Shown piece after piece: positions 2,204-63,245 of a stretch of 64,000 bases of DNA. The translations under genes and the position numbers were made by a program. Every line of letters begins with the position of its first letter. Position 1 is the stretch's first letter. The DNA is taken from IMG/VR virus record IMGVR_UViG_3300042273_000539. One strand, given 5' to 3'. A model generated the notes under the pieces. The model did no database searches. It saw only the letters and a list, made by a program, of their open reading frames with translations, and was not told where the DNA came from. Source of the DNA: an uncultured virus (IMG/VR IMGVR_UViG_3300042273_000539) (Duplodnaviria > Heunggongvirae > Uroviricota > Caudoviricetes).

Positions 2204-2878
2204 TCAACTATGCTCAAACTTAAAATATTCAACATTCTTATTTATAAGATTGTGCCAATAACAACGCATAAACATGCCCTCTTTTTGGTATGGTTCTTTA
2301 CTACTTCCGTCAGAACCAAAATTAAGGAGGTACATATAGATTTCATCACCTTCTAAACTTTTTAAAATATTTTCAATATATCTATCTATTGTTTCATCAG
2401 CAAATAAATTATAGCCTTCTGCCTTACCTCTCCAATAGTTTATATTTTCATTATAGTTAAAAATAAGTCCGTACCCAAGACTTCCTCCAAAAGAGGTATC
2501 TGGCAAAGATTCTATGTTGTTAAGCATTTCCATTTTTACTTCATTGTGAATTTCTTCGTACAACCAAGAATATTTATCCTTCAAAAGCTCTTCCCAGTTA
2601 TCTACAGCAAATGCAGATAAATTATAGTTATAATTTTCTGATTGTCTTACATCTTCAAACCTAGAACCATCAATAGAAGAAGCAATAGCACTGATGGCTG
2701 ATTTTAATGCTAACCCTATATCTGCTTTGCTCTCAAACTCATAAAAATCTTTTTCTCTAAATCTTTTTTCTGGCTTGAATAGTTGTCTCCAATCTTTTTG
2801 GCTTTTTAATGGCATAGCTGATATAATCAGGAAGCTACTGCTACTACTATTGCTTACAAAGCCATTTCTCATTTTCAT
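2204..2878 (-). CDS. SNSSS-motif protein 5 (224 aa)
   Basis: N-terminus MKMRNGFVSNSSSSSF shared with four neighbours. Confidence 0.85.
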   Translation of the reverse strand: MKMRNGFVSNSSSSSFLIISAMPLKSQKDWRQLFKPEKRFREKDFYEFESKADIGLALKSAISAIASSIDGSRFEDVRQSENYNYNLSAFAVDNWEELLKDKYSWLYEEIHNEVKMEMLNNIESLPDTSFGGSLGYGLIFNYNENINYWRGKAEGYNLFADETIDRYIENILKSLEGDEIYMYLLNFGSDGSSKEPYQKEGMFMRCYWHNLINKNVEYFKFEHS

Positions 2879-2879
2879 A

Positions 2880-3149
2880 TTAACCTCTCCATTCTATAAT
2901 GTTTTCATCTATTTTAAGAAGCTCTACTAAAAAATCTTCCATATTAAAATTATCCATCCAGGTATAACCTGTTATTTTAGTTTCATCTAATTTAATATCC
3001 CAAATGTCATTACAATTACTCATTCCAAGTATTCTTGCTATTTCTCCATGATTTACTATGGCTTGTATTTGAAGGTCAGTTAAGTTTTCTATTTCAATAA
3101 TAAAGCTACTGCTACTACTATTGCTTACAAAACCATTTCTAATCTTCAT
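2880..3149 (-). CDS. SNSSS-motif protein 4 (89 aa)
   Basis: N-terminus MKIRNGFVSNSSSSSF. Confidence 0.85.
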   Translation of the reverse strand: MKIRNGFVSNSSSSSFIIEIENLTDLQIQAIVNHGEIARILGMSNCNDIWDIKLDETKITGYTWMDNFNMEDFLVELLKIDENIIEWRG

Positions 3150-3543
3150 ATTGACCTACTTCCTTCTTTACAAACTCCGCTATATCATATGGCTCATGGT
3201 AATCTGCCTCTATGTTAAAAATTTCTATATCTTCCAAATCATCTTTGCTCATTTTGTTAAGAATTTCCTTCATAGATATAGGGCTTTCTTGCTCATAGAA
3301 AACTTCCCAGAAACTCCAGTCTGCATAGCTTAACAACTCTTCAAAGTAGTTATTAAATAAATCTTTGTGGTTTGCATAATTTAGATAATATAAACCATCG
3401 CTTCCCCATCTATTTGTTTCAGCTCTTATTGCTCCACCTTTTTTAAGAATTCTATGCACATCTTCCAGGCTACGCAATCTTCTCCCTACAACAATAAAAC
3501 TACTGCTACTGCTATTGCTCACAAACCCATTTCTCATTTTCAT
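3139..3543 (-). CDS. SNSSS-motif protein 3 (134 aa)
   Basis: N-terminus MKMRNGFVSNSSSSSF. Confidence 0.85.
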   Translation of the reverse strand: MKMRNGFVSNSSSSSFIVVGRRLRSLEDVHRILKKGGAIRAETNRWGSDGLYYLNYANHKDLFNNYFEELLSYADWSFWEVFYEQESPISMKEILNKMSKDDLEDIEIFNIEADYHEPYDIAEFVKKEVGQYED

Positions 3544-3544
3544 A

Positions 3545-3841
3545 TTAATAATCCTCCTGAATATAATCTAATTCAGCTTTTTCTAAAAAATGTATAAAAT
3601 CATCTATACCACTGTATTCCATGGTCATGAATACTGGTTTTACTGTAAAATCCTTTCTCTCAATTATATTGAATATAGTCTTTTGAAATTCTGTTTGATA
3701 ACCGTATTCAAGCTTATCTGTATCAAACCGTTCAAGTACAAATTCTTCTATATCATTTTTATTTATTTTAGTATATGAAGGGACAAATACAATAAAGCTA
3801 CAACTACTGCTATTACTTACAAATCCATTTCTAATTTTCAT
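3545..3841 (-). CDS. SNSSS-motif protein 2 (98 aa)
   Basis: N-terminus MKIRNGFVSNSSSCSF. Confidence 0.85.
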   Translation of the reverse strand: MKIRNGFVSNSSSCSFIVFVPSYTKINKNDIEEFVLERFDTDKLEYGYQTEFQKTIFNIIERKDFTVKPVFMTMEYSGIDDFIHFLEKAELDYIQEDY

Positions 3842-3844
3842 ATT

Positions 3845-4198
3845 TTAATGATCCATTCCACCATCAGTATGAAAAGAAATGTCTTTTTTAGAAAGAGAAG
3901 TTCCAAGCATTTCGTTTATTTGGTTAGCAGTTTCAATTTTCTCTTCTTTGATAGTTTTATTTTCATCAAGGCTTTTTACATGTTTCCCTATGACGTATAG
4001 TTCATAATATTCTTCAATCCCTCTGTAAACACAAATTTCACCATGGTTAGTATTTTCTAGTTCCCAAATGTCTTCACATAAGTCATCGGGGTGCTTTGAG
4101 TTCCAAAGCGATAACAAGTCATCTTCACTATAAACTATTCCAAGAATACAGAAGCTACTGCTACTGCTATTACTCACAAATCCATTTCTAATTTTCAT
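3845..4198 (-). CDS. SNSSS-motif protein 1 (117 aa)
   Basis: Start moved to ATG at 4198 (AGGAG SD just upstream) giving MKIRNGFVSNSSSSSF. Confidence 0.85.
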   Translation of the reverse strand: MKIRNGFVSNSSSSSFCILGIVYSEDDLLSLWNSKHPDDLCEDIWELENTNHGEICVYRGIEEYYELYVIGKHVKSLDENKTIKEEKIETANQINEMLGTSLSKKDISFHTDGGMDH

Positions 4199-4366
4199 AA
4201 TTTCTCCTATCGTTAGGTTCAAACCCTTTCTCTGAAAATTTTCCGAGGTCTTTTCCTCCCCATCTTTCTCCAAGGATTTCACCAGATGATTGCTCGTCAT
4301 AAAAAGTACACCTTACAACATGGTCTTCTCCATCTATTTTCACTATATACAAATTCCCTACTACTT

Positions 4367-4528
4367 TCACTTTTCAGCCTCTTCTCCGTCTTCAAATACA
4401 AATCCACAATTTGCACAGGTAGAGATTACGAAGAGCGCAAATTCGGTTTCTCCTAATGTTTTTTCTACGGTAAGTTCTCCGCAGTAAGGGCATCGGTATT
4501 TTTCTTTTAGCTCATCAACGGTAATCAT
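4367..4528 (-). CDS. Small zinc-ribbon protein (53 aa, below ORF-track cutoff)
   Basis: Hand translation MITVDELKEKYRCPYCG...CANCGFVF, two CxxC pairs. Confidence 0.65.
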   Translation of the reverse strand: MITVDELKEKYRCPYCGELTVEKTLGETEFALFVISTCANCGFVFEDGEEAEK

Positions 4529-4733
4529 TATATTCCCCCTGGCATAAGTGAGATAGATGAATACATATCATAAAACAGATAAACAAGTGTAACTATACAC
4601 CCTAATACAAACGCTGTTATAATAAAGACGAAAAAAAATTTATCAAACGTTACAGATAAAACTATAAGTGTGATTACTCCTAAAACTGTTAAAATGCTAT
4701 ATAATAAAATAATCCAATCCATTTTATTTTCCT

Positions 4734-5810
4734 TTAAATTTTATAAATAGGGCATTCCCTACAACCAAATTTATTACAAGACTTTGTAGCAAGAAGTTTA
4801 TTTCTAAATTGATAAACTCTTGGGCTATTCCAGACATTCTCTATGAAATTCTTATGTTCTATAACTGAAATACCAGTTTCCCATCCTTCTGTTCCTTCTG
4901 TAAAACTACATGGGAAAAACTCTGCATCTACATTAATATAAGAACTTTCCAAAGTGCTTTCACAAGGCATTATCATACCTTTATACATTTCATATTCTAC
5001 ATCATTGAGAGAATGGAAAAACTTCAAAGAAGAACAACTATCAAATCCATAATTTATCTCCTTTTCCTTACAAAGGGATACAAGAGTATTAAATTTTTCT
5101 TGCTCCAAGGCATGGAAACGTTCTCCTCTTCCCTTTGTTTTCAATGACAAAAATACAATAGCATTAAGATTAGAAAGGCGAGGGTCAGAAGAAATGTCTT
5201 TTACAGTTTCTAATGCTCTCTCAAAAGTTTCTTCTGAAATCATCATATGGATATTTATTTGGTTCATCCCTCTGTCGGTAAGTTTCTTTACAGAATCATA
5301 ACAAGCATCTTTGTTTGCATACCGAGAAATAGCAACAGCTCCACAGATTGAAGCAAGTTTATCTGCTGTCTCATCTGTTATTTGCGCTACGGTAATATTA
5401 GGAACAACTCCATTATCTCTTGCATACTGCATAATGGCAAAAGTGTCTGGATTAGTTTCTGCCTTACTATCTGCCCCAAAAGCAATTTGTGTCAAGGTTT
5501 TAGGAAGAGCTTCAAACACTTTTTTGAAAGTATCTAATGTCATGTGTTTGCCGTTAGGGTTATTAGATTTATAGCAGAAAGGACAAACCACACCATCTAC
5601 ACCAGTACAAGAAGTAGTTATTTCTATGTCAGCAATAGTGGGTCCTGGGAATAGTTCAGCGTCTTCTTCATGTGTCTTGCCCCAAGTAATCATATTTCCA
5701 TTTTTTTTGTTAAAAGAATAGTTAGCGTTTTCAGATTTTAGGACTTTCCCTCCATCACTTTCTACGACAGTAAAATCCTTATACCTATACACCCTTGTCT
5801 TTCCGTTCAT
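4734..5810 (-). CDS. Radical SAM protein with C-terminal SPASM/Twitch-like domain
   Basis: IEITTSC-x7-CPFC cluster motif; C-terminal PCES...FFPCSF...CxxxxCxxC; likely start MNGKTR at 5810, after the upstream stop at 5818. Confidence 0.85.
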   Translation of the reverse strand: MNGKTRVYRYKDFTVVESDGGKVLKSENANYSFNKKNGNMITWGKTHEEDAELFPGPTIADIEITTSCTGVDGVVCPFCYKSNNPNGKHMTLDTFKKVFEALPKTLTQIAFGADSKAETNPDTFAIMQYARDNGVVPNITVAQITDETADKLASICGAVAISRYANKDACYDSVKKLTDRGMNQINIHMMISEETFERALETVKDISSDPRLSNLNAIVFLSLKTKGRGERFHALEQEKFNTLVSLCKEKEINYGFDSCSSLKFFHSLNDVEYEMYKGMIMPCESTLESSYINVDAEFFPCSFTEGTEGWETGISVIEHKNFIENVWNSPRVYQFRNKLLATKSCNKFGCRECPIYKI

Positions 5811-5817
5811 ATTATAC

Positions 5818-7212
5818 CTACTTATAAATAATATAGTCAGTATCGTCAGCGATACTTTGATTTGTTCTTGTAAAAAATAATACGTTTCTACATTTTTCAT
5901 ATATCCCAGTTCTTTTAAATGGATAGAAAAAACCATCTGTAAGAACCACTACTAATGGCAGACTTTTTTCGTTTTCTACGTATAAATCCAAGTCGCCATT
6001 TTTCAAATGTATTCCGCTTTTTTCTTTATTATAGCATTTTTCTAGAATAAAGTCAAATATAGATTGTGGATTTGTTCCACCTCCTCCTATAAGAGGGGTA
6101 TTAGCCCAATCTCCTTGATTATAGAGTTTTATATCTCCATGAACAGCCCAATCCCATTGCATAAGATACACATTTCCTGTTTTTGTTTGTCTTAATTCTT
6201 TTGCTATGGCATCTATTTCCCTGAAAAAGTTTTCTGTTTCTTCTTTGCTAAAAAAACAAGAACCAGATGTATCAATGGCTAAAATAATAGCAGTTTCAAG
6301 ATTGTTTCTTTGCCTTAAAAAATGCGGAAAAATCATGTCGTTCCTGCTTTTAGGGTTCATTAAATAAGTAAGAAAACTTTTTTTCTTGCTATGCTTTGCA
6401 CTGTTTTTAGAAACATAAAAGTTTATTTTCTTTCTTAATTCCTTTTTCCAGTTTATTTCTGATTTTTTTAAACTTCTAATTTTTTTTGACATAGAGCCAG
6501 CATCTTTACCAGGAAGTTCACTTTCCATTTTCTCTGCTTGGCGAACCATACGCTCAATCATATTTTTAGTTTCTTGCTCTGATTGTTGACCGTCTCCCTC
6601 TTCTCCGCTATTTCCATCTTCTTCTGTTTCAACAGATTCCCCATCATACATGGTGTAAGTGATGGAGTAATTACTATCTTCCTGCGATAAAGAAACTTTA
6701 TCTCCTTTTTGCTCTGCTTGGACTTTATTTTCTTTTAACCAATGGTAGTATCTGATGGAAGAGTATCCATCTTCTTTGCTAATGTTTTTGTCATGCAAAA
6801 ACCATTTATAATCTTCAAGCACATATACTGCATCTGGCAAATACACTTTATCCAATGTAAGTTCTTTAAAATAAGAGAAATCAAACTCTTTTATCTCTTC
6901 GTTTATCATAGCATCAGTTGCTATGTTTATAAGCAACCTTTCGTTATCATCTTCCATTTTATTCTTGAAGGTATGAAGATGTTGTTTAAAGATATGTTGA
7001 GCTTCATGGGTTAGAATAAAATAGAGTTTTTCTATTGGCATTTCTAATATTCTATCGTGATAAAATATAGTTATCCCATTTTTAAAAGATACCCCTGCAA
7101 AAAAGTTCTCTGCTTCTACTTGCTTATAGTTAGCGTTAAGTAGAAACAGATACATAAGAGGTTCTTTATCACGCAAAAAAGCGATAAGTTTTGTTATTCT
7201 TTCTGGTCTCAT
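5818..7212 (-). CDS. HExxH metallopeptidase-like plus VWA domain protein (DUF2201-like)
   Basis: HEAQH, NIATDAMIN, MIDAS DTSGS, GGGGT, LTDG. Confidence 0.85.
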   Translation of the reverse strand: MRPERITKLIAFLRDKEPLMYLFLLNANYKQVEAENFFAGVSFKNGITIFYHDRILEMPIEKLYFILTHEAQHIFKQHLHTFKNKMEDDNERLLINIATDAMINEEIKEFDFSYFKELTLDKVYLPDAVYVLEDYKWFLHDKNISKEDGYSSIRYYHWLKENKVQAEQKGDKVSLSQEDSNYSITYTMYDGESVETEEDGNSGEEGDGQQSEQETKNMIERMVRQAEKMESELPGKDAGSMSKKIRSLKKSEINWKKELRKKINFYVSKNSAKHSKKKSFLTYLMNPKSRNDMIFPHFLRQRNNLETAIILAIDTSGSCFFSKEETENFFREIDAIAKELRQTKTGNVYLMQWDWAVHGDIKLYNQGDWANTPLIGGGGTNPQSIFDFILEKCYNKEKSGIHLKNGDLDLYVENEKSLPLVVVLTDGFFYPFKRTGIYEKCRNVLFFTRTNQSIADDTDYIIYK

Positions 7213-8618
7213 ATTTTACTAAAATCCGTATGTATCATATAGCTGTACGCCTCTGCGTATGCTTTATTCACCGATGATAGAGCAGAAGAAAATCCTTTTC
7301 CGTAAGTATTTCCTGCATTCATAGTAGAGATAAAAGCACTTATATCTTCAGCAGTAGCCCCGACATCATTAAAGAAAGTAGATACGTTTGCTACTTCTCG
7401 TAATGAAGTGTTATCAAATACGAATTCTGTTCCTTCTCCTTGTGTTTTTATATATTCTGCAAGTTCTACAATATAATAGGTTCTCATGCCAAACCCTTTC
7501 ACTACGTTTCTCATGCTTGATTGTATTTCGCTATAGTTATGAAAAATCTGGTCTGGTGTAATGTTATTGTCATAGTTAAATTTAAATGAAGCTATTATTT
7601 TTTCTGCTAAATTTTTTCCATTTAATCCAAGTTCATTTACGTTTCTTGTTAGAACATCCACTTGTTTATTAACATCCATAAAAGCAGAAACAGGGTTTTC
7701 ATAGTTTAATATGAAATCACTAATCATACTATTTGCCAAAAGGGTCCATGCTCTAGGCGACATAGTAGATGAAACTTCATATTCATTTTCCAGTGGTTTA
7801 GGTTCTAAAAACGGAGCATCTGGCTTCATAGTGTCTATGTAGACATTTATTAAATAGTTTAGTATGATGTTAGGTATTCTGGTTGGAAAGTCCAGCACGC
7901 GCCCGCTATGGAGCACTGGGTAAGGATTTAGAGCGAAGCTATCAAGCCAACTTGGTAAATCATATTTTAAATATAAAACTCTATGCCATCTTTCGGCTGT
8001 GGCTATATCAAAAGTATTTACTTGGTTTGTTTCAGTAGAACCGTCTTGCTCTCTCATGTTTCCGGCACCCACGATTACACATCTTTTAGGTAATCTGTAT
8101 TTTTCACTTTTCCCTGTCTTTTCATTAAAGTCAGCAAACCCACCAATCTCTCCATTAAGCACAAGGTTCATGATTGCCGCCATGCTCTCTGTATCTGCTT
8201 TGTTAAATTCATCCAGAAAAAGAACCCAAAGCCTTTCATCATCACTAGGAGGTAGAATAGTAGGACTAGCTAATTTAACTACCTTACTTCCATCATCTTT
8301 TGAATGTAGATAAGGGAATCCTTGGAGTTCTTCAATGGGAACTTTCTGTGGCTCTATTTTATGGAATATGGCTCCACTTTCTTCTGATATGCTTTTTACT
8401 ATCTCTGTTTTACCTATTCCGGTGGGTCCAAAGATAAACACAGATGGCCTGGTGCCATCCAGTGTGAGATTAGTTTTTGCTATATTAATAAGCCTTTTAA
8501 GTTCTTCTTTTAATTGAGAATAATTTACAGTTGTTTCAGGAATACTGTATTTTTTAAAACTATCATTTAAAATAAAACTCTTTCCAATTGCTTTTCTTGC
8601 TAATGTGATACTATCCAT
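7209..8618 (-). CDS. MoxR-like AAA+ ATPase
   Basis: Walker A GPTGIGKT, Walker B LFLDEFN, AGN sensor, SPRAW; overlaps the VWA gene by 4 nt. Confidence 0.85.
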   Translation of the reverse strand: MDSITLARKAIGKSFILNDSFKKYSIPETTVNYSQLKEELKRLINIAKTNLTLDGTRPSVFIFGPTGIGKTEIVKSISEESGAIFHKIEPQKVPIEELQGFPYLHSKDDGSKVVKLASPTILPPSDDERLWVLFLDEFNKADTESMAAIMNLVLNGEIGGFADFNEKTGKSEKYRLPKRCVIVGAGNMREQDGSTETNQVNTFDIATAERWHRVLYLKYDLPSWLDSFALNPYPVLHSGRVLDFPTRIPNIILNYLINVYIDTMKPDAPFLEPKPLENEYEVSSTMSPRAWTLLANSMISDFILNYENPVSAFMDVNKQVDVLTRNVNELGLNGKNLAEKIIASFKFNYDNNITPDQIFHNYSEIQSSMRNVVKGFGMRTYYIVELAEYIKTQGEGTEFVFDNTSLREVANVSTFFNDVGATAEDISAFISTMNAGNTYGKGFSSALSSVNKAYAEAYSYMIHTDFSKI

Positions 8619-16913: not shown

Positions 16914-16938
16914 AAATAAGTGGGGTTTCCCCCACTTA
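16914..16938 (-). terminator. Intrinsic terminator after the DUF2828 gene
   Basis: TAAGTGGGG-AAA-CCCCACTTA followed by a T run on the minus strand. Confidence 0.75.
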
Positions 16939-18372
16939 CATGAAAAGTCTTTCTACTGGTGAATATCTTTCTCCGTTTATTACCTCAAGCATGAAGGTTT
17001 CTGGGGAGCACCCCTCGGAAACGGCAAACTTGAAAACAGAAGGAGAAGACCCAGAAACAAGAACTGTGTTGATTTCGTCCTTGGAAACTGGAACATTGTT
17101 TTGTCTAGAATTTACATTCCAGAATACAATTTTTGGTATAGTATAACCGGCAAGGGCATACTTTTCTTTGATTGCTTCATAGTTAGTAACAGAAAAGTTG
17201 CCTTTCCTTCCATAACTAGAACTAGTGGCTTCATCAAACTCCATATCAGATATGATATATATAGTTTCTGGCATTTCTTCTTGTGGAACTTTTTCAGCTA
17301 GACAGATAGAAAGAATAGTTCTGAAAGCCTTAATAAGGTCAGTATTCATATCCCAGTTTGCCCGAGATATATTCCTCATTTTTTCTCCCAAAGTTTTTCC
17401 TCTTACCTGTTCTACACTTGGGTTTCCACTGAAAGTCATAAAACTTCCGTTAAATCTTCCTTTGTTCCTTTCTGCAAAATACAAAGCCAAAGATATAGAA
17501 ACAGCTATTGGCAATCCAGCCATAGAACCAGATACATCTGCCATTACGATAGCATTTTTGCCATTGGTAAAGTCAGGCAAATTATCCCATAGAGCAGTTG
17601 CCTCTTTATCGTTTATTTTGCCTTCCATCAATCTGGTATAGATCTCATAAGGGTATAGTACAGAAGCATTTATTTTTGCCTCTCCACTCTTGACTTTATT
17701 GATATAAGCTCCAAATCTATCAGTATCATTTCTTCCAAAAGCCTTATTATAGTTAAGCATAGCCTTTGAAGGAACGTGTTCATAGTTGATTTCGTCCCAA
17801 TCTTTTGCACACATCTTGGTTTCTACAAGATTAAGTTTAGCCCGAAGAGCAGAAAGAGCCTTCCTGTATTGTCTTGGGGTAAGCCCCATATACCTTGCGA
17901 TTGCTTCAGCTTCTTTGTTAGAAGATCCACCAACAGAAGGCATATACTTTTCCAAAAGGGTAGGTGTTTTTTCTCTGATGTCTCTTTTGAAGACAGCAGA
18001 AACAAACTCTTCATATTCATCGTGAGTCATTACTTCAAATACATCCTTCCAAGAACCGTAATAAGACATTAGCTTAATAAGTTCAGCCTTTGGAGCATCT
18101 TTATATTTATTCAAAAGCCAGCGAGTAGCAACTCTGAAAAATCTCTTTTCTCCAAGTCCTCCCCTACAATCTCTGATATAGAAAAGGCACTTCATAGCAA
18201 GTTGAGGATTTTCTTTAAAAGCATTGGAAAACATATTGATAATTTCGCTATCTTGGCGAGTTCTCATAGAGCCTCCCATTGCGAACATATCAACCAAAGC
18301 GGATTTGGATGTGCTTCTTGTCAAAGCGCCATTTTCAGTAAGTGTAAAGTCATTAAGTGTTTTCCAGAACAT
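16936..18372 (-). CDS. TROVE/Ro60-like protein with VWA domain (DUF2828-like)
   Basis: TENGA, RDCRGGLGE, YGSWKD, LYPYEI, DVSGSM, SDMEFD, VFWNV motifs. Confidence 0.85.
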   Translation of the reverse strand: MFWKTLNDFTLTENGALTRSTSKSALVDMFAMGGSMRTRQDSEIINMFSNAFKENPQLAMKCLFYIRDCRGGLGEKRFFRVATRWLLNKYKDAPKAELIKLMSYYGSWKDVFEVMTHDEYEEFVSAVFKRDIREKTPTLLEKYMPSVGGSSNKEAEAIARYMGLTPRQYRKALSALRAKLNLVETKMCAKDWDEINYEHVPSKAMLNYNKAFGRNDTDRFGAYINKVKSGEAKINASVLYPYEIYTRLMEGKINDKEATALWDNLPDFTNGKNAIVMADVSGSMAGLPIAVSISLALYFAERNKGRFNGSFMTFSGNPSVEQVRGKTLGEKMRNISRANWDMNTDLIKAFRTILSICLAEKVPQEEMPETIYIISDMEFDEATSSSYGRKGNFSVTNYEAIKEKYALAGYTIPKIVFWNVNSRQNNVPVSKDEINTVLVSGSSPSVFKFAVSEGCSPETFMLEVINGERYSPVERLFM

Positions 18373-35571: not shown

Positions 35572-36834
35572 TTATAATACATATTCTAACAATTCTTCTT
35601 TTGACGTAATGCCTTTGTTTATCTGTTTATCAAATAAATCATCAAGTATTATTTTGAATACTTTTCCAGGCTTCATTCCCAAAGCTATCAAATCATTTCC
35701 AGTTACCAAAGGAGCTACAAAGGTTTTTTCATCCTTACGAAGTTCCAGTATGGCATCTTTTATTTCAGTGTTCTTCTCTAATGCTTTTTCAGTCATGCTG
35801 TCTGCAACAGAAAGTTCTGCAAGTTTTACTGCTCTTTCGTCTTTTGCTAAAGCTATTCTCTTACTTTTTTTCATTTCAAGAAAATGCTTTACTTTCATAT
35901 GATTTTCAACTAACCATAGAATATCTTCTGCTTCCTTGTTGGAAACTTTAAGCATTTTTAATATAGGAAGAGCAAGCATAACAGAATCAGCTTCATGACC
36001 TTTAGAAGTTATTTTCCCATCTTCATTTTTAGTGGTAGTTAACTTTCCAAAGTCATGAAAAAGTCCAGCCAAGTTCAATACAAAATCATCAGTCTGTAGG
36101 TTTTTGATAACCTTCAAAGTATGAATCCATGTATCTCCCTCTGGGTGCCAAACAGCATCCTGTGGAACATTTTTCAAAGCAGAAGCATACGGAAAAATTT
36201 CATCTATAACATGTAAGTCATACAATAATTCTACAAATTTATGGAATTTATTTCCTGTTTTCTTTATCTCTGCCGTTATTCTTTCTGCACTAATGCTATG
36301 AAGTAAATGTTTGTTTTCTTTAATGGCAGAAACAGCCTCTTTATCAAGAGTAAATCCGTAAACAGAAGCAAATCTTATAGCACGTAGAATTCTTAAATGG
36401 TCTTCTAGAATTCTATCTTCTGCTTTTCCAATAAACCTTACAGTTCCAGTTTCTAAATCTTCAATTCCATAATGAAGGTCTATAATCTTATCTTTAATCG
36501 GGTCAAAATATAATGCATTAAAAGTAAAGTCCCTTCTGTTAGAGTCTTCTTCAAGAGAAGAACTAAAATGAACACTTTTAGGCTTTCTACCGTCATAAGA
36601 ACTTTCAGTTCTAAAAGTAGCTACCTCAACCCCGCTTACGAGAGATATGCCGAAACTTTCTCCCACAAAAAAAGAGGTTTCAAAAATTTTTGAAACCTCT
36701 TCAGGAGTAGCGGAAGTCACTACGTCAATATCTTTTGGAGGTTTCCTTAAAATCATATCTCTTACGCATCCACCTACGAAGTAGGCTTCAAATCCATTTT
36801 CTTGTAGTTTTTTTACGATGTCAATTTCTTTCAT
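35572..36834 (-). CDS. cca: CCA-adding tRNA nucleotidyltransferase with HD domain
   Basis: VGGCVRD, DIDV, RRDFTFNAL, EDHLRILRAIRF, HPEGD..HT, HDFGK. Confidence 0.9.
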   Translation of the reverse strand: MKEIDIVKKLQENGFEAYFVGGCVRDMILRKPPKDIDVVTSATPEEVSKIFETSFFVGESFGISLVSGVEVATFRTESSYDGRKPKSVHFSSSLEEDSNRRDFTFNALYFDPIKDKIIDLHYGIEDLETGTVRFIGKAEDRILEDHLRILRAIRFASVYGFTLDKEAVSAIKENKHLLHSISAERITAEIKKTGNKFHKFVELLYDLHVIDEIFPYASALKNVPQDAVWHPEGDTWIHTLKVIKNLQTDDFVLNLAGLFHDFGKLTTTKNEDGKITSKGHEADSVMLALPILKMLKVSNKEAEDILWLVENHMKVKHFLEMKKSKRIALAKDERAVKLAELSVADSMTEKALEKNTEIKDAILELRKDEKTFVAPLVTGNDLIALGMKPGKVFKIILDDLFDKQINKGITSKEELLEYVL

Positions 36835-44724: not shown

Positions 44725-45891
44725 TCAAGTAGCTTTAAAGTTCCATATAGGTTTTAAAGTTCTTACAATTTCAACAGATGGCTCCAAGTACCTTATAATT
44801 TCTTCTGGGTCTTTATAAGCCATAGGTGATTCGTCAAGAGTGCTTAAACCTATACAAGAGGATTTAATACCTTTCATCTGCTCTTCAAACTCTTCCATAG
44901 AAAGCGTTTTCTTTGCTTCACTTCTTGACATTTTTCTACCAGCACCATGAGGAGCAGAAAAATTCCATTCTTCATTTCCTTTTCCAGTGCCTATGATAGC
45001 ACCATCTTTCATTGAAAGAGGTATTATAACTTTCTCTCCTTTTTGAGCAGAGATAGCCCCTTTGCGGATTATACCATTTTTCAAGTCAATATAGTTATGT
45101 ACAGACTCAACTATATTATCATAACCATACTTTTCTGATATATCTTCTATAATAATATTTCTATTTATAGAAGCATATTCCTGTGCTACCATCATATGCT
45201 CTAAATACTTTGAAAAATTATCACCTTCAAGCCATTCTAGACCGCTAGTAGTTTTAGGCAATGCTTCTATAGCAAGTCGCAATTCTTCGCCTGTATATTT
45301 CTGCTTCAAAGTGTCAATATCATTTTTTCTGTAGTTTATACTCTTTGCCATATCCTGATGAAATTCTGCTATTTTTTTGCCAAAATTTCTTGAACCAGTA
45401 TGAGCTAAAAGCCAAAATTTACCTTCATTATCTTCATCTATTTCAATGAAGTGATTTCCACCACCAAGAGTGCCTAAAGATTTCATAACCCTATGAAAAC
45501 CCTGTCCTGTTTCACGGCAAACTTTCAAAACCCTTTCGTGAAAATCTTTGTCAAATTTTCTTGCATCTTTATCTCTAACACTAGAACCAGTAGGAATATT
45601 TTCTTTTGTAAATTTCTCTATGTCGTCTAAATCAAATTTCTTTGACAGACGAACAGCCAAAACTCCACATCCAATATCTACTCCTATCAAGTTAGGCACA
45701 ACCTTATCAGTAAGTTTTGCAGTATACCCTATTACGCACCCAGCGCCTGCGTGAACGTCAGGCATTACCCTTACATGTGCGTCTTTTGCCATAGGCTGAT
45801 TCAATAAAGAGATTATTTGTGATATTGCTCCTTCTTCTGCAAAATCATTATAGATTATTGCGTTTTCATACTTTCCTTTTAACTCTATCAT
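44725..45891 (-). CDS. rtcB: RtcB RNA ligase
   Basis: MPDVHAG, GVDIGCG, GTLGGGNHFIE, HTGSR, HNY, RKGA, SAPHGAGR, DESPMAYK. Confidence 0.95.
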   Translation of the reverse strand: MIELKGKYENAIIYNDFAEEGAISQIISLLNQPMAKDAHVRVMPDVHAGAGCVIGYTAKLTDKVVPNLIGVDIGCGVLAVRLSKKFDLDDIEKFTKENIPTGSSVRDKDARKFDKDFHERVLKVCRETGQGFHRVMKSLGTLGGGNHFIEIDEDNEGKFWLLAHTGSRNFGKKIAEFHQDMAKSINYRKNDIDTLKQKYTGEELRLAIEALPKTTSGLEWLEGDNFSKYLEHMMVAQEYASINRNIIIEDISEKYGYDNIVESVHNYIDLKNGIIRKGAISAQKGEKVIIPLSMKDGAIIGTGKGNEEWNFSAPHGAGRKMSRSEAKKTLSMEEFEEQMKGIKSSCIGLSTLDESPMAYKDPEEIIRYLEPSVEIVRTLKPIWNFKAT

Positions 45892-59492: not shown

Positions 59493-62400
59493 TCAACCGC
59501 AAGTAGAATATCCACAACTGCTACAAACCGTACAGCCACCCTCAAAAACCATAGTTCCACCACATTCAGGGCATTCTGCTTTATTAGAAGAAATCATTTC
59601 TCCATCAGGTATATAATACTTCAATACCCTCGCAATGGCTTTTTGGAACGTCCCAAACTTCTTTACTTTATTCATCTGTGCGACAATAAACTCCAATGGA
59701 ACTTGATGCCTCATCAATAAAGAAAGCAATCTACACATAGAAGCATAATCATCATTAAACACCTCTGCTAAATTTTCTACTACTATCTTACTTCGCTTGC
59801 CTTCAATAAGCAAATCATATCTACTGGCTTTTTCAGCACCATCATATACCTTAACAATACTACCTTCTTTAAATCTCTTTAAATCAACTATATCATCATG
59901 ATTATCTGTATAGAAGATTTCATATGGTGCGTTATTGTAAGGTGAATCTGGATTTTTACCAACTAGGACAATAACAGGTTCTTTATTAACTGTAATATCA
60001 TAGATATCGCAAGGCAAGCTTTCTGGACGTTTCATAGCATTTTTCAATACCTCAATATTTCTCCATCCATCATCTTTCTTTGTAGAAAGAATACCATCCA
60101 TAGAAGCACCTTCATGAAAAGAAGTAACTCCCTTCAATCCCTTTTTCCAGGAATACATGAATATATCTTTATATTGCTCTAGTGTAGTTTCAAAAGGCAT
60201 GTTAATGGTTTTACTGATACTGTGGTCTATCCAGTATTGAAGTGCTGCCTGTATATCTATTCCTTCTGTAATAGATACATTATGGGATACCACTACATAA
60301 TCAGGAAGATCATTTCCTTCTTTGTATCCTGCGTACTCTATGTATTCCAGCCATCCATCATCATATACAGTTTGTGTTTTTGTGGTATCATCATCCTGTC
60401 TTATAGACCTATCATACTGCAAAGAGAAAATAGGCTCAATACCAGAAGAACAGTTATTTCCCAAAGACAAAGAAGTGGTGTTATGACTAACATATGAATT
60501 TGCAATATAAGTTCTTCCGTCTGGAACTTCCAAGTCTAAAGTGTAATTATTACTATCGCTTATAGCAACAACTTCATCAATAAACAATCCCTTTCCAAAA
60601 TAATCATTAAGATAATCTACTTTCTCTTTTAAATCTTTTTTAATATATCTCTTTGCTCTCTCTTCTCCGATAGAGCCATATTTTTTCCAATAAATCCTGT
60701 AAGATAAATTGTTTGAATAGCTACCTTCATCAAGAGATTTATCATAAACTGAAATAGATGAATTAATACCTACTGCTCTCATTATAATAGCTAATTGTTG
60801 AGCATTTTTTTCGGAATAAGTATCAATATACATTGTCCCTCTGCTGCTTGAACCATCACCATAAAAATATCCATCAATATAAGAAAGGATACTTTCTTTA
60901 GAAGATAATCTTACTGCTTTTGGAATTTCTATTCCTAATGCTTTATTTTTTATTAATCCATTAATTTCTAAAAAGTTAAGTAATCTTTGAGAAGAAATAT
61001 ACACACTGTCACAATTTTTACCATTATCAACAACTTTAGAATTCCAATTAAATAAATTCTTAATCAGTTCAACAACTTCTATTGATTCATTTGTTAAATG
61101 ATTTAAGTTAATTCTTATGCCTTTGTTGTGAGTGCTACCATCTGCATTATAAAGTCCTAAAAAGAAAGCAAATTCAGCGGTAATCTCTTCCGGTAATCTT
61201 ATATCTTTTTCATTAGGGTGTTTTGCATAATCTGGAAGTATAAGCCGTTTATTATCTTTCTTTTCATATCCTCCAATTTTATAAACTATATTATCTCCAA
61301 CAGATAGGTCTTCAAGTTTCTTCCAGTCAAACGAAGTTCCATTTAACACTTTAAACTTATGATTTGGAGTTCCTTCTAAATTTACACCACTCTTTGTAGA
61401 TATTTTTTTAGTAGGTTTAAATCCATTTATAAAAGTATTCCTTATTCCTTCGTACTTTTCATATTCGTTTAATGCTCCAAGATTTTCTTGTGGTATCCAA
61501 GTTCCATCTTCATAGTTTTTATAATTAGGAATTAATTCTTCCAATGTGTATAAACCATCGTTAGTTGATACAATACTTTCTGGAACAAGACATCCGGTTG
61601 GTGCCGTGGTTAATATACCAATGTTTCTTAACCCGACTTCTTGAATTCTTTTCTGTGTTCCTTCACTTAACCTTGTAATAAATCCAGAATGCCCAATATG
61701 ACTATCATAAGCAGGAAACGAGCCTTTTTGTAATGCTAAATCAACAGAAGCATTATACGCACTTTCTGCTAGGACATTTCCCATTTCATATACAAAATCT
61801 ACACTTTCTTTACTTCCATATCTAATCTTTAATTTCAACAAAGCATCGCCAAGTCCTGTAATTCCAAGACCAATCCTTCTCCATGCTTTTGATATTTTCT
61901 CAATTTTTTCAAGAGGATAATCAGTAGCATCCAAGACATTATCCAAGAACCTTACTCCAAGTCTTGCCATGTTTTTAAATTCTTCCCAATCAAATTCTGC
62001 ATTCTCTGTAAATTGATTTTTTACCAATTTAGAAAGATTGATAGAAGATAGACAGCAAAGAGAATAAGAAGGCATTACGATTTCCATCAGTTATTGTTAA
62101 GCTCTTTATCTTAACTCTCCGATTTTCACCGGAGTGTCGGACTATATCTTCACCCATAATATGGGGCAGGGCGCTCGTGGGAAAATTACCTACCGTTCTG
62201 GTATCGTTTCCTAGTCTCTGAACCTTGCAGAGTATTCCTACTCTACCTTGGATGCTGATTAGCATATTCTTTTTCAAGAATTTAGCTTTCCAGCAGTTCA
62301 CCCTGTTTTTTACTTGAGGCAAGATTATTTACCACAAGGATTGCATCTATCTACCTTAAAAGCGTGAGAAGCATTGTTTCCTGCTTCCACTGTATCAAGG

Positions 62401-63245
62401 AACAAAGCACCTGGCTCATTATACCACCAAGCCTGTTTAGTCATTCTTTCATACAAATCTTTTGCTCTTACAGTTTTATACACCTTTACTAAAATAAGAT
62501 CTGTGTCGTCAACAGTATATCCTTGGTCTATACAATATTGTAAATCAAAGTTGTTTTTAACCCATTTTGTTTTACAATTTTCTTCGCTTTCAAATTTCAT
62601 AAGAGGGAATACCAAATCCCAGTCTTCATCATTTTCAACTGCTCTCATAAACTCATCAGTAATACCTACTGAAATATTAAATTGAGTAAGTTTATTATTC
62701 TCTCTTCCTTTCTTATATTCAATAAATTCTTCAATATCTGGATGGTCTACATTAAGGATACAAATGTGCGCCCCTCTACGACCACCTCCTGTATGTATAG
62801 CTTTAGCAGAAGTATCAAATACCTCTATAAAACTCATAACGCCAGAACTTTCTCCGCCTTTGCTAATCAATGCGCCTTTAGGACGAAGTTTTGAAGCGTT
62901 AAATCCAACACCTCCACCCATTTGACCGATGATAGCATCTTCGCTTACTGGCCCATAAATGCCAGGCATTGAATCCTCTAAATCAATAGTAAAACAGTTG
63001 TTGTAGTTTTTCATTCTGGAATAAGGTCTAGCATTTGCCAATATTCTTCCCGCTGGGATAAATTTACCAGAAATCATAGCTTGATAGAAATACTCTTGCC
63101 AAATGTTTTTTAAATTATCATCCGGTTCTACAGACGCTATTTCTTCTGCTACTCCTTTTAAGATTTCTTCTACTGTTTTTTCTCCGTGAAGAGCATATTT
63201 TCTAAAAAATATCTCCCTTGAAATATCCTGTTTAAATTCAAACAC
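59493..63245 (-). CDS. nrdJ: Class II (B12-dependent) ribonucleotide reductase; exons 63245-62331 and 62084-59493
   Basis: PAGRIL, NCF, GGGVG, RRGA, NPCG|EI, RRIGLG, TAPTG..SSGIEP, ISKTIN, C-terminal CxxC..CG. Confidence 0.9.
60480..61592 (-). mobile_element. Intein with LAGLIDADG endonuclease (371 aa) in nrdJ
   Basis: APTG|CLVPES...TPNH...LGLYNADGS...GYFYGDGS...VSHN|TTS. Confidence 0.92.
62085..62330 (-). mobile_element. Group I intron (246 nt, no intact ORF) in nrdJ
   Basis: Exon ends in U with P1 partner GCCTCA, terminal G, AACTGCTGGAAA, AATCAGCA, TTCAGAGACTA, AAGATATAGTCC; splicing restores NPCGE. Confidence 0.92.

Follow-up and report, generated by a model that had tools for sequence, protein, structure and literature searches.

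A radical SAM enzyme and an array of putative client proteins with a common N-terminal tag in an uncultured phage

Here we analyse a stretch of 64,000 nucleotides from an uncultured virus of the Caudoviricetes (IMG/VR record IMGVR_UViG_3300042273_000539), which we call the window, and within it the minus-strand genes at positions 2,204 to 5,810, where a gene for a radical S-adenosylmethionine (SAM) enzyme lies next to five small genes whose products, here called clients, all begin with nearly the same 16 residues, here called the tag. Our analysis indicates that many phages carry a two-component system of this kind, consisting of a dedicated radical SAM enzyme and an array of small clients, and that the locus studied here is one example of it. 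If the readings in which the tag is a substrate, a docking handle or a leader are taken together, sequence comparison and modelling make it very probable that the enzyme binds the tag. The leading single model, in which the enzyme would carry out radical chemistry on the tag itself, we hold with somewhat better than even confidence. A sequence-only reading of this DNA had proposed a post-translational modification system with several client proteins, and that proposal is supported by the gene linkage, by the co-variation of tag and enzyme, by the maturase-like fold of the enzyme model and by a low-confidence N-terminal tail in a client model, which together point to such a system. For its other suggestion, a self-processing site in the tag, we found nothing in support. 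A literature search on the tag sequence and on the pairing of enzyme and tag found no description of either.

The genes of the system in the window, with protein lengths in amino acids (aa), are the following.

4734-5810, minus strand: radical SAM enzyme, putative maturase, 358 aa from ATG 5810, with a Cys-rich C-terminal domain
3845-4198, minus strand: client 1, 117 aa, tag MKIRNGFVSNSSSSSF, 'C-I-Y-G' subfamily
3545-3841, minus strand: client 2, 98 aa, tag MKIRNGFVSNSSSCSF
3139-3543, minus strand: client 3, 134 aa, tag MKMRNGFVSNSSSSSF
2880-3149, minus strand: client 4, 89 aa, tag MKIRNGFVSNSSSSSF, 'LS.EQ...I.NH.E ... MDNFDM' subfamily
2204-2878, minus strand: client 5, 224 aa, tag MKMRNGFVSNSSSSSF

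The tagged array and its pairing with the enzyme gene

Exactly five tagged genes occur in the window, all on the minus strand and coding for 89-224 aa, as found by scanning the six frames of the 64 kb both with a regular expression and with a hidden Markov model (HMM) built from 149 tag N-termini; the HMM scores the five clients at E-values of 4e-14 to 4e-17 and the next best segment at 0.35. Their common N-terminus reads MK(I/M)RNGFVSNSSS(S/C)SF. When the five are aligned, columns 1-16 hold 14 invariant positions and the later columns none, and identity to the first sequence amounts to 26-32%, most of it supplied by the tag. The open reading frames (ORFs), the regular expression, the HMM and the alignment thus confirm what had been claimed from the letters, namely five tandem genes with a common 16-aa N-terminus and unlike bodies. 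The same is true of the tight coupling of these genes, which are packed with TAA-T-ATG junctions at 3545/3543 and 2880/2878 and with an 11-nucleotide overlap at 3139-3149, and of the radical SAM gene, which lies on the strand of the array and whose likely start, ATG 5810, is also the end coordinate that the sequence-only reading had given. Client 1 starts at the ATG at 4198, after an AGGAG; its ORF as listed runs further upstream, to 4300. At 3139-3149 and again at 4188-4198, the TAG stop of the upstream gene arises out of frame from tag codons 3-4 (ATG AAR ATT AGA); since the tag codons themselves supply the stop of the preceding gene, the overlap is built in and would favour translational coupling.

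How general is the pairing of enzyme and tag? A locus search with the single enzyme sequence returned the window's own contig only and an alignment of enzymes was needed; it led to 166 confirmed loci, of which the best 80 were kept as an enzyme-anchored set. Tagged genes lie within 10 kb of the enzyme in 72 of these 80 loci (71 by a stricter regular expression), with 1-13 per locus, and all 307 of them are on the enzyme strand, 274 downstream and 33 upstream. The pairing is kept in 56 of the 62 enzyme clusters formed at 70% identity. The next most common co-occurring gene family reaches 11 of the 80 loci at most, no other family exceeds that count, and neither a leader protease nor an exporter was found beside the enzyme.

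Starting from the tag, we obtain the same picture. A DNA pattern for NGFVSNSSS with AGY serine codons only is found in 30 viral contigs, each with 1-13 tandem tagged genes, and in 24 of the 30 an enzyme homologue of 37-48% identity lies within 8 kb. Among the remaining six, one contig has its enzyme farther off, a 16-kb contig (L007) is close to that one and carries the same tagged genes, one is a complete genome with an enzyme remnant, and the last three are fragments estimated to be 2-31% complete. The complete genome (L024), with direct terminal repeats, holds a 66-aa remnant of the enzyme, namely its C-terminal Cys domain, at 6247-6447 and an intact tagged gene at 7989-8369. The linkage of the motif to radical SAM genes elsewhere, which had been set beforehand as a test of the sequence-only reading, thus held strongly in both directions.

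The system is nearly confined to phage-like contigs. In cellular genomes (185,579 species representatives), the tag DNA pattern is found in four contigs, all from metagenome-assembled genomes and all with phage-like arrays, and all four carry the enzyme together with the array. Of 50,697 cultured-phage records, 173 contain the enzyme and 175 an orthologue of one client; both sets come from the same host genera (Klebsiella, Enterobacter, Cronobacter, Citrobacter and Escherichia), RB16 being one of these phages.

The tag itself is nearly invariant and is fixed to the start of the protein. In 349 unique N-termini, gathered by HMM and not by regular expression, the consensus residue is found at K2 in 343, R4 in 346, G6 in 334, F7 in 343, V8 in 331 (with Ile in 16 more), S9 in 344, N10, S11 and S12 in 347 each, S13 in 323, S15 in 334 and F16 in 327 (with Tyr in 19 more). 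Gly6 lies exactly 5 codons past the start codon in 449 of 459 tagged ORFs from the fetched loci. These 349 N-termini show no conserved cleavage motif after the tag, and the tag alignments hold no conserved Glu in positions 1-24. An exhaustive HMMER search of 1.84 billion cluster representatives with a 38-position tag profile yields 24,610 matches at E <= 1e-3 and 485 at E <= 1e-10, and nearly all of the 150 listed matches begin at residue 1. The best-scoring matches (P0006-P0016) hold two tags each, some of them mid-protein; these may reflect neighbouring tagged genes merged in ORF calling, or genuine tandem fusions.

The sequence-only reading had further observed that all tag serines are encoded by AGY codons. 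This is so for the five window tags but is not a feature of the family, as the Ser codons of 250 enzyme-anchored tags are 60% AGY and 40% TCN (AGY in the bodies: 39%), with both classes occurring at each Ser position of the tag. Synonymous sites vary even among the five window tags, where Gly6 is encoded by GGA, GGA, GGG, GGT and GGC, which argues that conservation acts on the protein rather than on the DNA. Together with the two classes of Ser codon, this variation rules out a nucleotide-level motif. Gene conversion as the sole cause of tag identity is rejected on similar grounds, the five tags differing synonymously at 8 of 16 codons.

Tag forms, enzyme fold and client models

A further indication that enzyme and tag meet comes from a second form of the tag, MKxRxDFVTNSSSSS(F/Y), which surfaced among the homologues of the client 4 body. 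Its DNA pattern picks out 72 viral contigs. The same enzyme family is present in 57 of them, and in 56 of these 57 loci all 219 scored tagged genes lie downstream of the enzyme and on its strand. In a maximum-likelihood tree, 111 enzymes fall into two deep clades, both with an SH-aLRT support of 100. In clade one, 41 of the 42 rows have T9 tags only and one is mixed; in clade two, 62 of the 69 rows have S9 tags only and seven have no tag in range. Among 515 unique clients, positions 6 and 9 are Gly and Ser in 308, Asp and Thr in 185 and some other combination in 22. Both forms occur inside 8 of 53 sequence clusters of client bodies, which implies that paralogues older than the enzyme split changed two tag residues in step with the enzyme. 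For one such mixed subfamily the client tree needs 3 changes of tag form, of which the starred branches force at least one. Recent gene conversion would not account for the co-variation, because synonymous sites vary freely.

Nine positions of the enzyme are clade-specific, including E50G, K68Q, S272G and R198F (numbered as in the 345-aa query). K68Q adjoins the CxxC of the SAM cluster and S272G adjoins Cys270, and judged from their place in the sequence we expect the clade-specific positions to lie near the active site. We read the match between tag form and enzyme clade as co-adaptation of the enzyme and the tag, which would be hard to explain without a direct interaction of the two.

What kind of enzyme is this? 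By sequence it belongs to phrog_7293 (E 3e-106), a PHROG family without function. The Pfam models Radical_SAM (PF04055, 17.8 bits, cut-off 29.5) and SPASM (PF13186, 18.3 bits, cut-off 21.5) both score below their cut-offs, the former because the enzyme is too divergent for the curated model, and a sequence search of the PDB gave no match. Among 73 homologues, the invariant cysteines are 55, 63 and 66, which would bind the SAM cluster, and 246, 270, 288 and 340 (in the numbering of the 345-aa query). Thus the three-Cys motif of radical SAM enzymes is present, with the canonical spacing CX3CX2C in many homologues and CX7CX2C in the window copy. The sequence-only reading had called the enzyme radical SAM/SPASM-like, and the radical SAM part of that description stands; the seven cysteines of a SPASM domain, however, are not found, as only four invariant cysteines follow the barrel. 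Since four suffice for one auxiliary cluster, the enzyme is predicted from its sequence to carry a single auxiliary Fe-S cluster and to be more Twitch-like than a full SPASM protein.

The AlphaFold2 model of the enzyme, with a mean predicted local distance difference test (pLDDT) of 97.2, clearly adopts a radical SAM fold. Foldseek matches it to 193 PDB chains at E <= 1e-3, each one listed being a radical SAM enzyme. The best match is SuiB (5v1t, E 1.9e-10, TMq 0.70), with SkfB (6efn, E 2.2e-9), CteB (5why, E 6e-9) and TigE among the further matches and BlsE, EpeE, the anaerobic sulfatase-maturating enzyme anSME (4k36, E 1e-6, TMq 0.59) and PqqE lower down; SkfB, a Twitch enzyme, ranks fifth. 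Sequence identity to SuiB, SkfB and CteB is only 12-16%. Residues 1-45 of the model form four beta-strands and no helices, and the 80 loci showed no separate conserved small partner gene. A search for longer proteins that might be fusions of enzyme and client gave a single protein, of 707 aa, in which a LAGLIDADG insertion accounts for the extra length of the enzyme; this is weak evidence that fusions are absent.

Enlarged forms of the enzyme gene recur. Besides this 707-aa LAGLIDADG form (P0217) there are forms of 619 aa (L124, 1458-3317) and 778 aa (L150, 3587-5923). In a published Klebsiella phage of Slopekvirus type, a GIY-YIG endonuclease gene splits the enzyme gene (PMC9960720). The enzyme gene thus appears to be a frequent target of selfish-endonuclease insertion.

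The bodies behind the tag are diverse. Tagged ORFs in the fetched loci have a median length of 129 aa (range 19-390), with bodies of 60-370 aa, and several of the 53 body clusters are kept across many phages with invariant residues of their own. Among the homologues of the client 4 body in a collection of 5.8 billion proteins, 21 of 22 carry the tag and the exception looks truncated; the tag therefore does not behave as a module that is gained and lost. As a group the bodies are acidic, with a median isoelectric point (pI) of 4.5 and 83% below pI 5, against 21% of the other ORFs of the loci, a crude background that includes spurious ORFs. In the window, jackhmmer with bodies only finds 33 relatives of client 1 in other loci (subfamily alignment n=32; pI 4.71), 24 of client 4, one of client 3 and none of client 2 among the fetched loci. 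A word-indexed homologue search with client 3 returned near-identical proteins only. Tblastn of client 2 against cultured phages gave no match, where the low-complexity filter probably masks the tag, and blastn of the array region against the same phages gave none either.

Annotation of the clients yields little beyond the tag. Pfam, PHROGs, NCBIfam and PADLOC searches of the five window clients returned sub-threshold noise and phrog_7397, an unannotated family that hits four of them (E 2.8e-5 to 6e-3) and covers the tag only (residues 1-18 to 1-34); client 2 has the match of E 2.8e-5, over residues 1-34 only. For client 5, Pfam, PHROGs and NCBIfam gave nothing at the thresholds applied. Among 85 larger clients from other loci, Pfam matched none at E 1e-3 except for one weak zinc ribbon. 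Every source name of a client that was read is 'hypothetical', and two ESM Atlas look-ups, one of them with client 5, returned viral 'hypothetical protein' clusters only.

For client 4, an AlphaFold2 model based on 23 homologues (pLDDT 84.4) is a small alpha/beta domain, with no match in the PDB by Foldseek at E <= 1e-3. Residues 1-5 and 7-10 have a pLDDT below 50 and residues 14-19 form an edge strand; given this low confidence at the N-terminus, the first ten residues look like a free tail, with the end of the tag anchored in the fold. A phosphate-binding loop, of the PP-loop or another kind, was considered for the tag and rejected, because the model has a disordered tail followed by a strand and not a strand, loop and helix. 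A joint prediction of enzyme and client gives weak support for their binding, with a median ipSAE of 0.59 (0.66, 0.49 and 0.59), which lies in a band of scores where most passing predictions are wrong unless the pairing was plausible beforehand. The best of three controls reaches 0.05, the partner has a pLDDT of 51 or more, and 67% or more of the contacts agree between runs. In the calibration of this score, 116 of 157 solved complexes and 2 of 215 mismatches passed the mark; 18 of those solved complexes and both passing mismatches lie at or below 0.60.

Possible roles of the tag

We propose the following sequence of events for the model in which the enzyme acts on the tag. The exposed N-terminal tail of a newly made client would be bound by the enzyme, and a 5'-deoxyadenosyl radical derived from SAM would take a hydrogen from a tag residue, most likely in the neighbourhood of Phe7-Val8-Ser/Thr9-Asn10, where a Ser or Thr that switches with the enzyme clade follows, two residues on, an always-aromatic residue. 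A modification would thereby be installed in the tag; known enzymes suggest as candidates a crosslink from an aromatic residue to a beta-carbon, an oxidation of Ser or Thr, or an epimerisation. The variable bodies would then carry differing effector functions, probably in host take-over or counter-defence. A broader form of this model is that large lytic phages, among them the laboratory coliphage RB16 and the Klebsiella phages of Slopekvirus, use a general tagging scheme, in which an unseen modification on a universal 16-residue tag would activate, stabilise or direct exchangeable acidic anti-host effectors. We put this forward tentatively and with well under even confidence; if true, it would mean a new chemistry for radical SAM enzymes on whole proteins.

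Several of our observations weigh against modification of the tag by the enzyme. That a tag residue is modified is something we infer from sequence and models, and the chemistry and the biological role suggested above are likewise read from these; the binding step has the modelled complex behind it, with a score in the doubtful band just described. Since residues 14-19 belong to the client fold, part of the tag would be structural. No curated maturase family matched the enzyme in NCBIfam (best E 0.063), and neither Pfam nor NCBIfam matched an RRE (PqqD-like) domain in it. On the enzyme side the clades separated only once, and the co-variation therefore amounts to no statistical proof. Eight of the 80 enzyme loci have no tagged gene within 10 kb, of which at least two (L060 and L080) end about 1-2 kb downstream of the enzyme. 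The complete genome L024, which keeps a tagged gene beside an enzyme remnant, implies that the tag can outlive the enzyme, at least for a time. Finally, about 19-25 kb separate the two tagged genes of Klebsiella phage Miro from the enzyme, a separation seen in Slopekvirus phages.

Could the tag instead be a docking handle, with the clients as specificity adaptors that bring third-party targets (a host protein, a nucleic acid or a metabolite) to the active site? The linkage, the co-variation and the complex prediction would fit such a role equally well, the bodies make up conserved families of folded proteins that have their own invariant positions, and a single enzyme is kept alongside up to 13 different bodies. 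On the other hand, the near-total invariance of N10-S11-S12 and of F7 exceeds what docking usually needs, the clade-specific residues next to cluster cysteines suggest that the tag enters the active site, and, to our knowledge, the enzymes among the top structural matches include none that uses exchangeable adaptor proteins. We consider this reading unlikely, if one to be taken seriously.

A second alternative, which we regard as improbable, is that the tag works autonomously, perhaps as a beta-strand or an anchor, and targets the clients to one common structure of phage or host, the enzyme being linked to it only by pathway or regulation. The genome with an enzyme remnant would be natural under this reading, as would the distant tagged genes of Miro, which flank a VWA protein, and the part that residues 14-19 take in the client fold. 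There is also a precedent in the internal proteins of phage T4, where diverse proteins of a hyperplastic locus share a conserved, lineage-specific N-terminal capsid-targeting sequence that is cut after Glu by the prohead protease. As in T4, we find tandem, fast-evolving small genes with a short conserved N-terminus. The tag, however, has no Glu and hence no cleavage site of the T4 type, it is nearly invariant across very different phages, and it sits on acidic proteins (median pI 4.5), unlike the DNA-binding internal proteins. Moreover, it co-varies with a radical SAM enzyme: an autonomous module would leave unexplained both the switching of positions 6 and 9 with the enzyme clade in at least eight subfamilies and the standing of the enzyme as sole conserved neighbour.

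A third possibility, that the tag is a leader guiding modification within the variable body and is perhaps then removed, would make the clients precursors of ribosomally synthesised and post-translationally modified peptides (RiPPs). The closest folds, SuiB, SkfB and CteB, are leader-guided, and in the pairs SuiB/SuiA (streptide), SkfB/SkfA and CteB/CteA, as here, the enzyme gene adjoins genes with a common recognition sequence. In the prochlorosins, too, a conserved leader precedes a hypervariable remainder and one modifying enzyme, the lanthionine synthetase ProcM, serves many precursors with short-peptide products. Compared with the three radical SAM pairs, however, our enzyme has four auxiliary cysteines rather than seven, no detected RRE and no accompanying protease or exporter; its clients, up to 13 per enzyme, are folded proteins of about 80-390 aa rather than short peptides; and the conserved part is the extreme N-terminus, nearly invariant and found almost only on phage contigs. 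ProcM differs in enzyme class and chemistry, and here a conserved part of 16 residues is followed by a folded protein. The clients, then, are not built as a short leader with a core. Their bodies, of 60-370 aa, fall into 53 unrelated clusters, the one modelled folds confidently, and outside the tag there is no invariant residue even among the five window clients, nor does a conserved cleavage motif follow it. In its working the system resembles a radical SAM maturase guided by a leader, but it fails several features that define RiPPs, and we give modification of the body a very small chance.

That enzyme and tagged genes merely share an accessory region by descent seems hardly credible: many of the contigs are related and T4-like accessory regions hold many small genes without assigned function, but 56 of 62 enzyme clusters keep the pairing while all other neighbour families change, the tagged genes keep to one strand and order (307 of 307 and 219 of 219 on the enzyme strand), and the tag form follows the enzyme clade.

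For modification of the tag itself, a comparable known case is anSME, a radical SAM enzyme of the same structural group whose target is a Ser or Cys within a short motif close to the N-terminus of whole proteins, with one enzyme serving many clients. Its substrate motif is (C/S)-x-(P/A)-x-R, which the tag lacks, none of 85 clients scanned has a sulfatase domain, and anSME has two auxiliary clusters where our enzyme is predicted to have one. Glycyl-radical enzymes, in turn, have their invariant Gly close to the C-terminus, in an R-V-x-G-(F/Y/W) loop. The tag is N-terminal, its spacing is R-x-G-F, and Gly6 is Asp in 185 of 515 clients; this replacement in the second tag form rules out a glycyl-radical site.

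If the enzyme does modify the tag, the system would be a case of radical SAM maturation of whole folded proteins with many clients per enzyme. It would cover tens of thousands of unannotated clusters, and at more than 24,000 clusters the clients would be among the largest unannotated protein superfamilies of the virosphere. The tag thus offers a first handle on this phage 'dark matter', as tagged genes can be recognised from 16 residues and grouped as the clients of one enzyme. Since the system is present in cultivable phages (RB16 of E. coli and Klebsiella phages), our hypothesis can be tested by standard genetics and mass spectrometry; the residues of the tag peptide after Arg4, a trypsin site, begin NGFVSNSSSSSF. 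Slopekvirus, a genus of Klebsiella phages that carries the system, includes isolates characterised for therapeutic use. The two matched forms of enzyme and tag are a natural specificity-swap pair, and a portable tag this short, recognised by one enzyme, could become a tool for protein engineering.

Neighbouring genes and genome context

Three small lineage-specific ORFs lie between the enzyme and the clients, and two larger ones lie upstream of the enzyme.

4188-4370, minus strand: 60-aa ORF with a GTG start, read directly from the sequence
4367-4528, minus strand: 53-aa zinc-ribbon protein, with weak Pfam zinc-ribbon matches only
4528-4722, minus strand: 64-aa hydrophobic small protein, from the ORF list
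5818-7212, minus strand: DUF2201 metallopeptidase/VWA protein (PF13203, E 3.8e-13)
7209-8618, minus strand: MoxR-like AAA ATPase (Pfam AAA_5)

The zinc-ribbon protein is seen only in the window and in a near-identical contig (L025), to which the BLAST matches of the hydrophobic protein are also confined, and both are therefore lineage-specific. Homologues of the DUF2201/VWA protein and of the MoxR-like ATPase stand beside the array in one other lineage only (L016), so they are not a conserved part of the system. In Klebsiella phage Miro, two tagged genes flank a 738-aa VWA protein (L036, 3991-6207). It is possible that VWA proteins are linked to tagged clients in a few lineages.

The window is part of a large myovirus, with genes for tail sheath, RtcB, tRNA nucleotidyltransferase, methyltransferases and ribonucleotide reductase. 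Genes of RNA-repair type lie on the minus strand at 16936-18372 (RNA-binding protein, phrog_850), 35572-36834 (tRNA nucleotidyltransferase) and 44725-45891 (RtcB ligase). The large subunit of ribonucleotide reductase is spread over two minus-strand ORFs, 59493-62087 and 62325-63245, of which the downstream one (864 aa) is interrupted by some 300 aa with a match to an endonuclease family, an insert that looks like an intein or a homing-endonuclease insertion.

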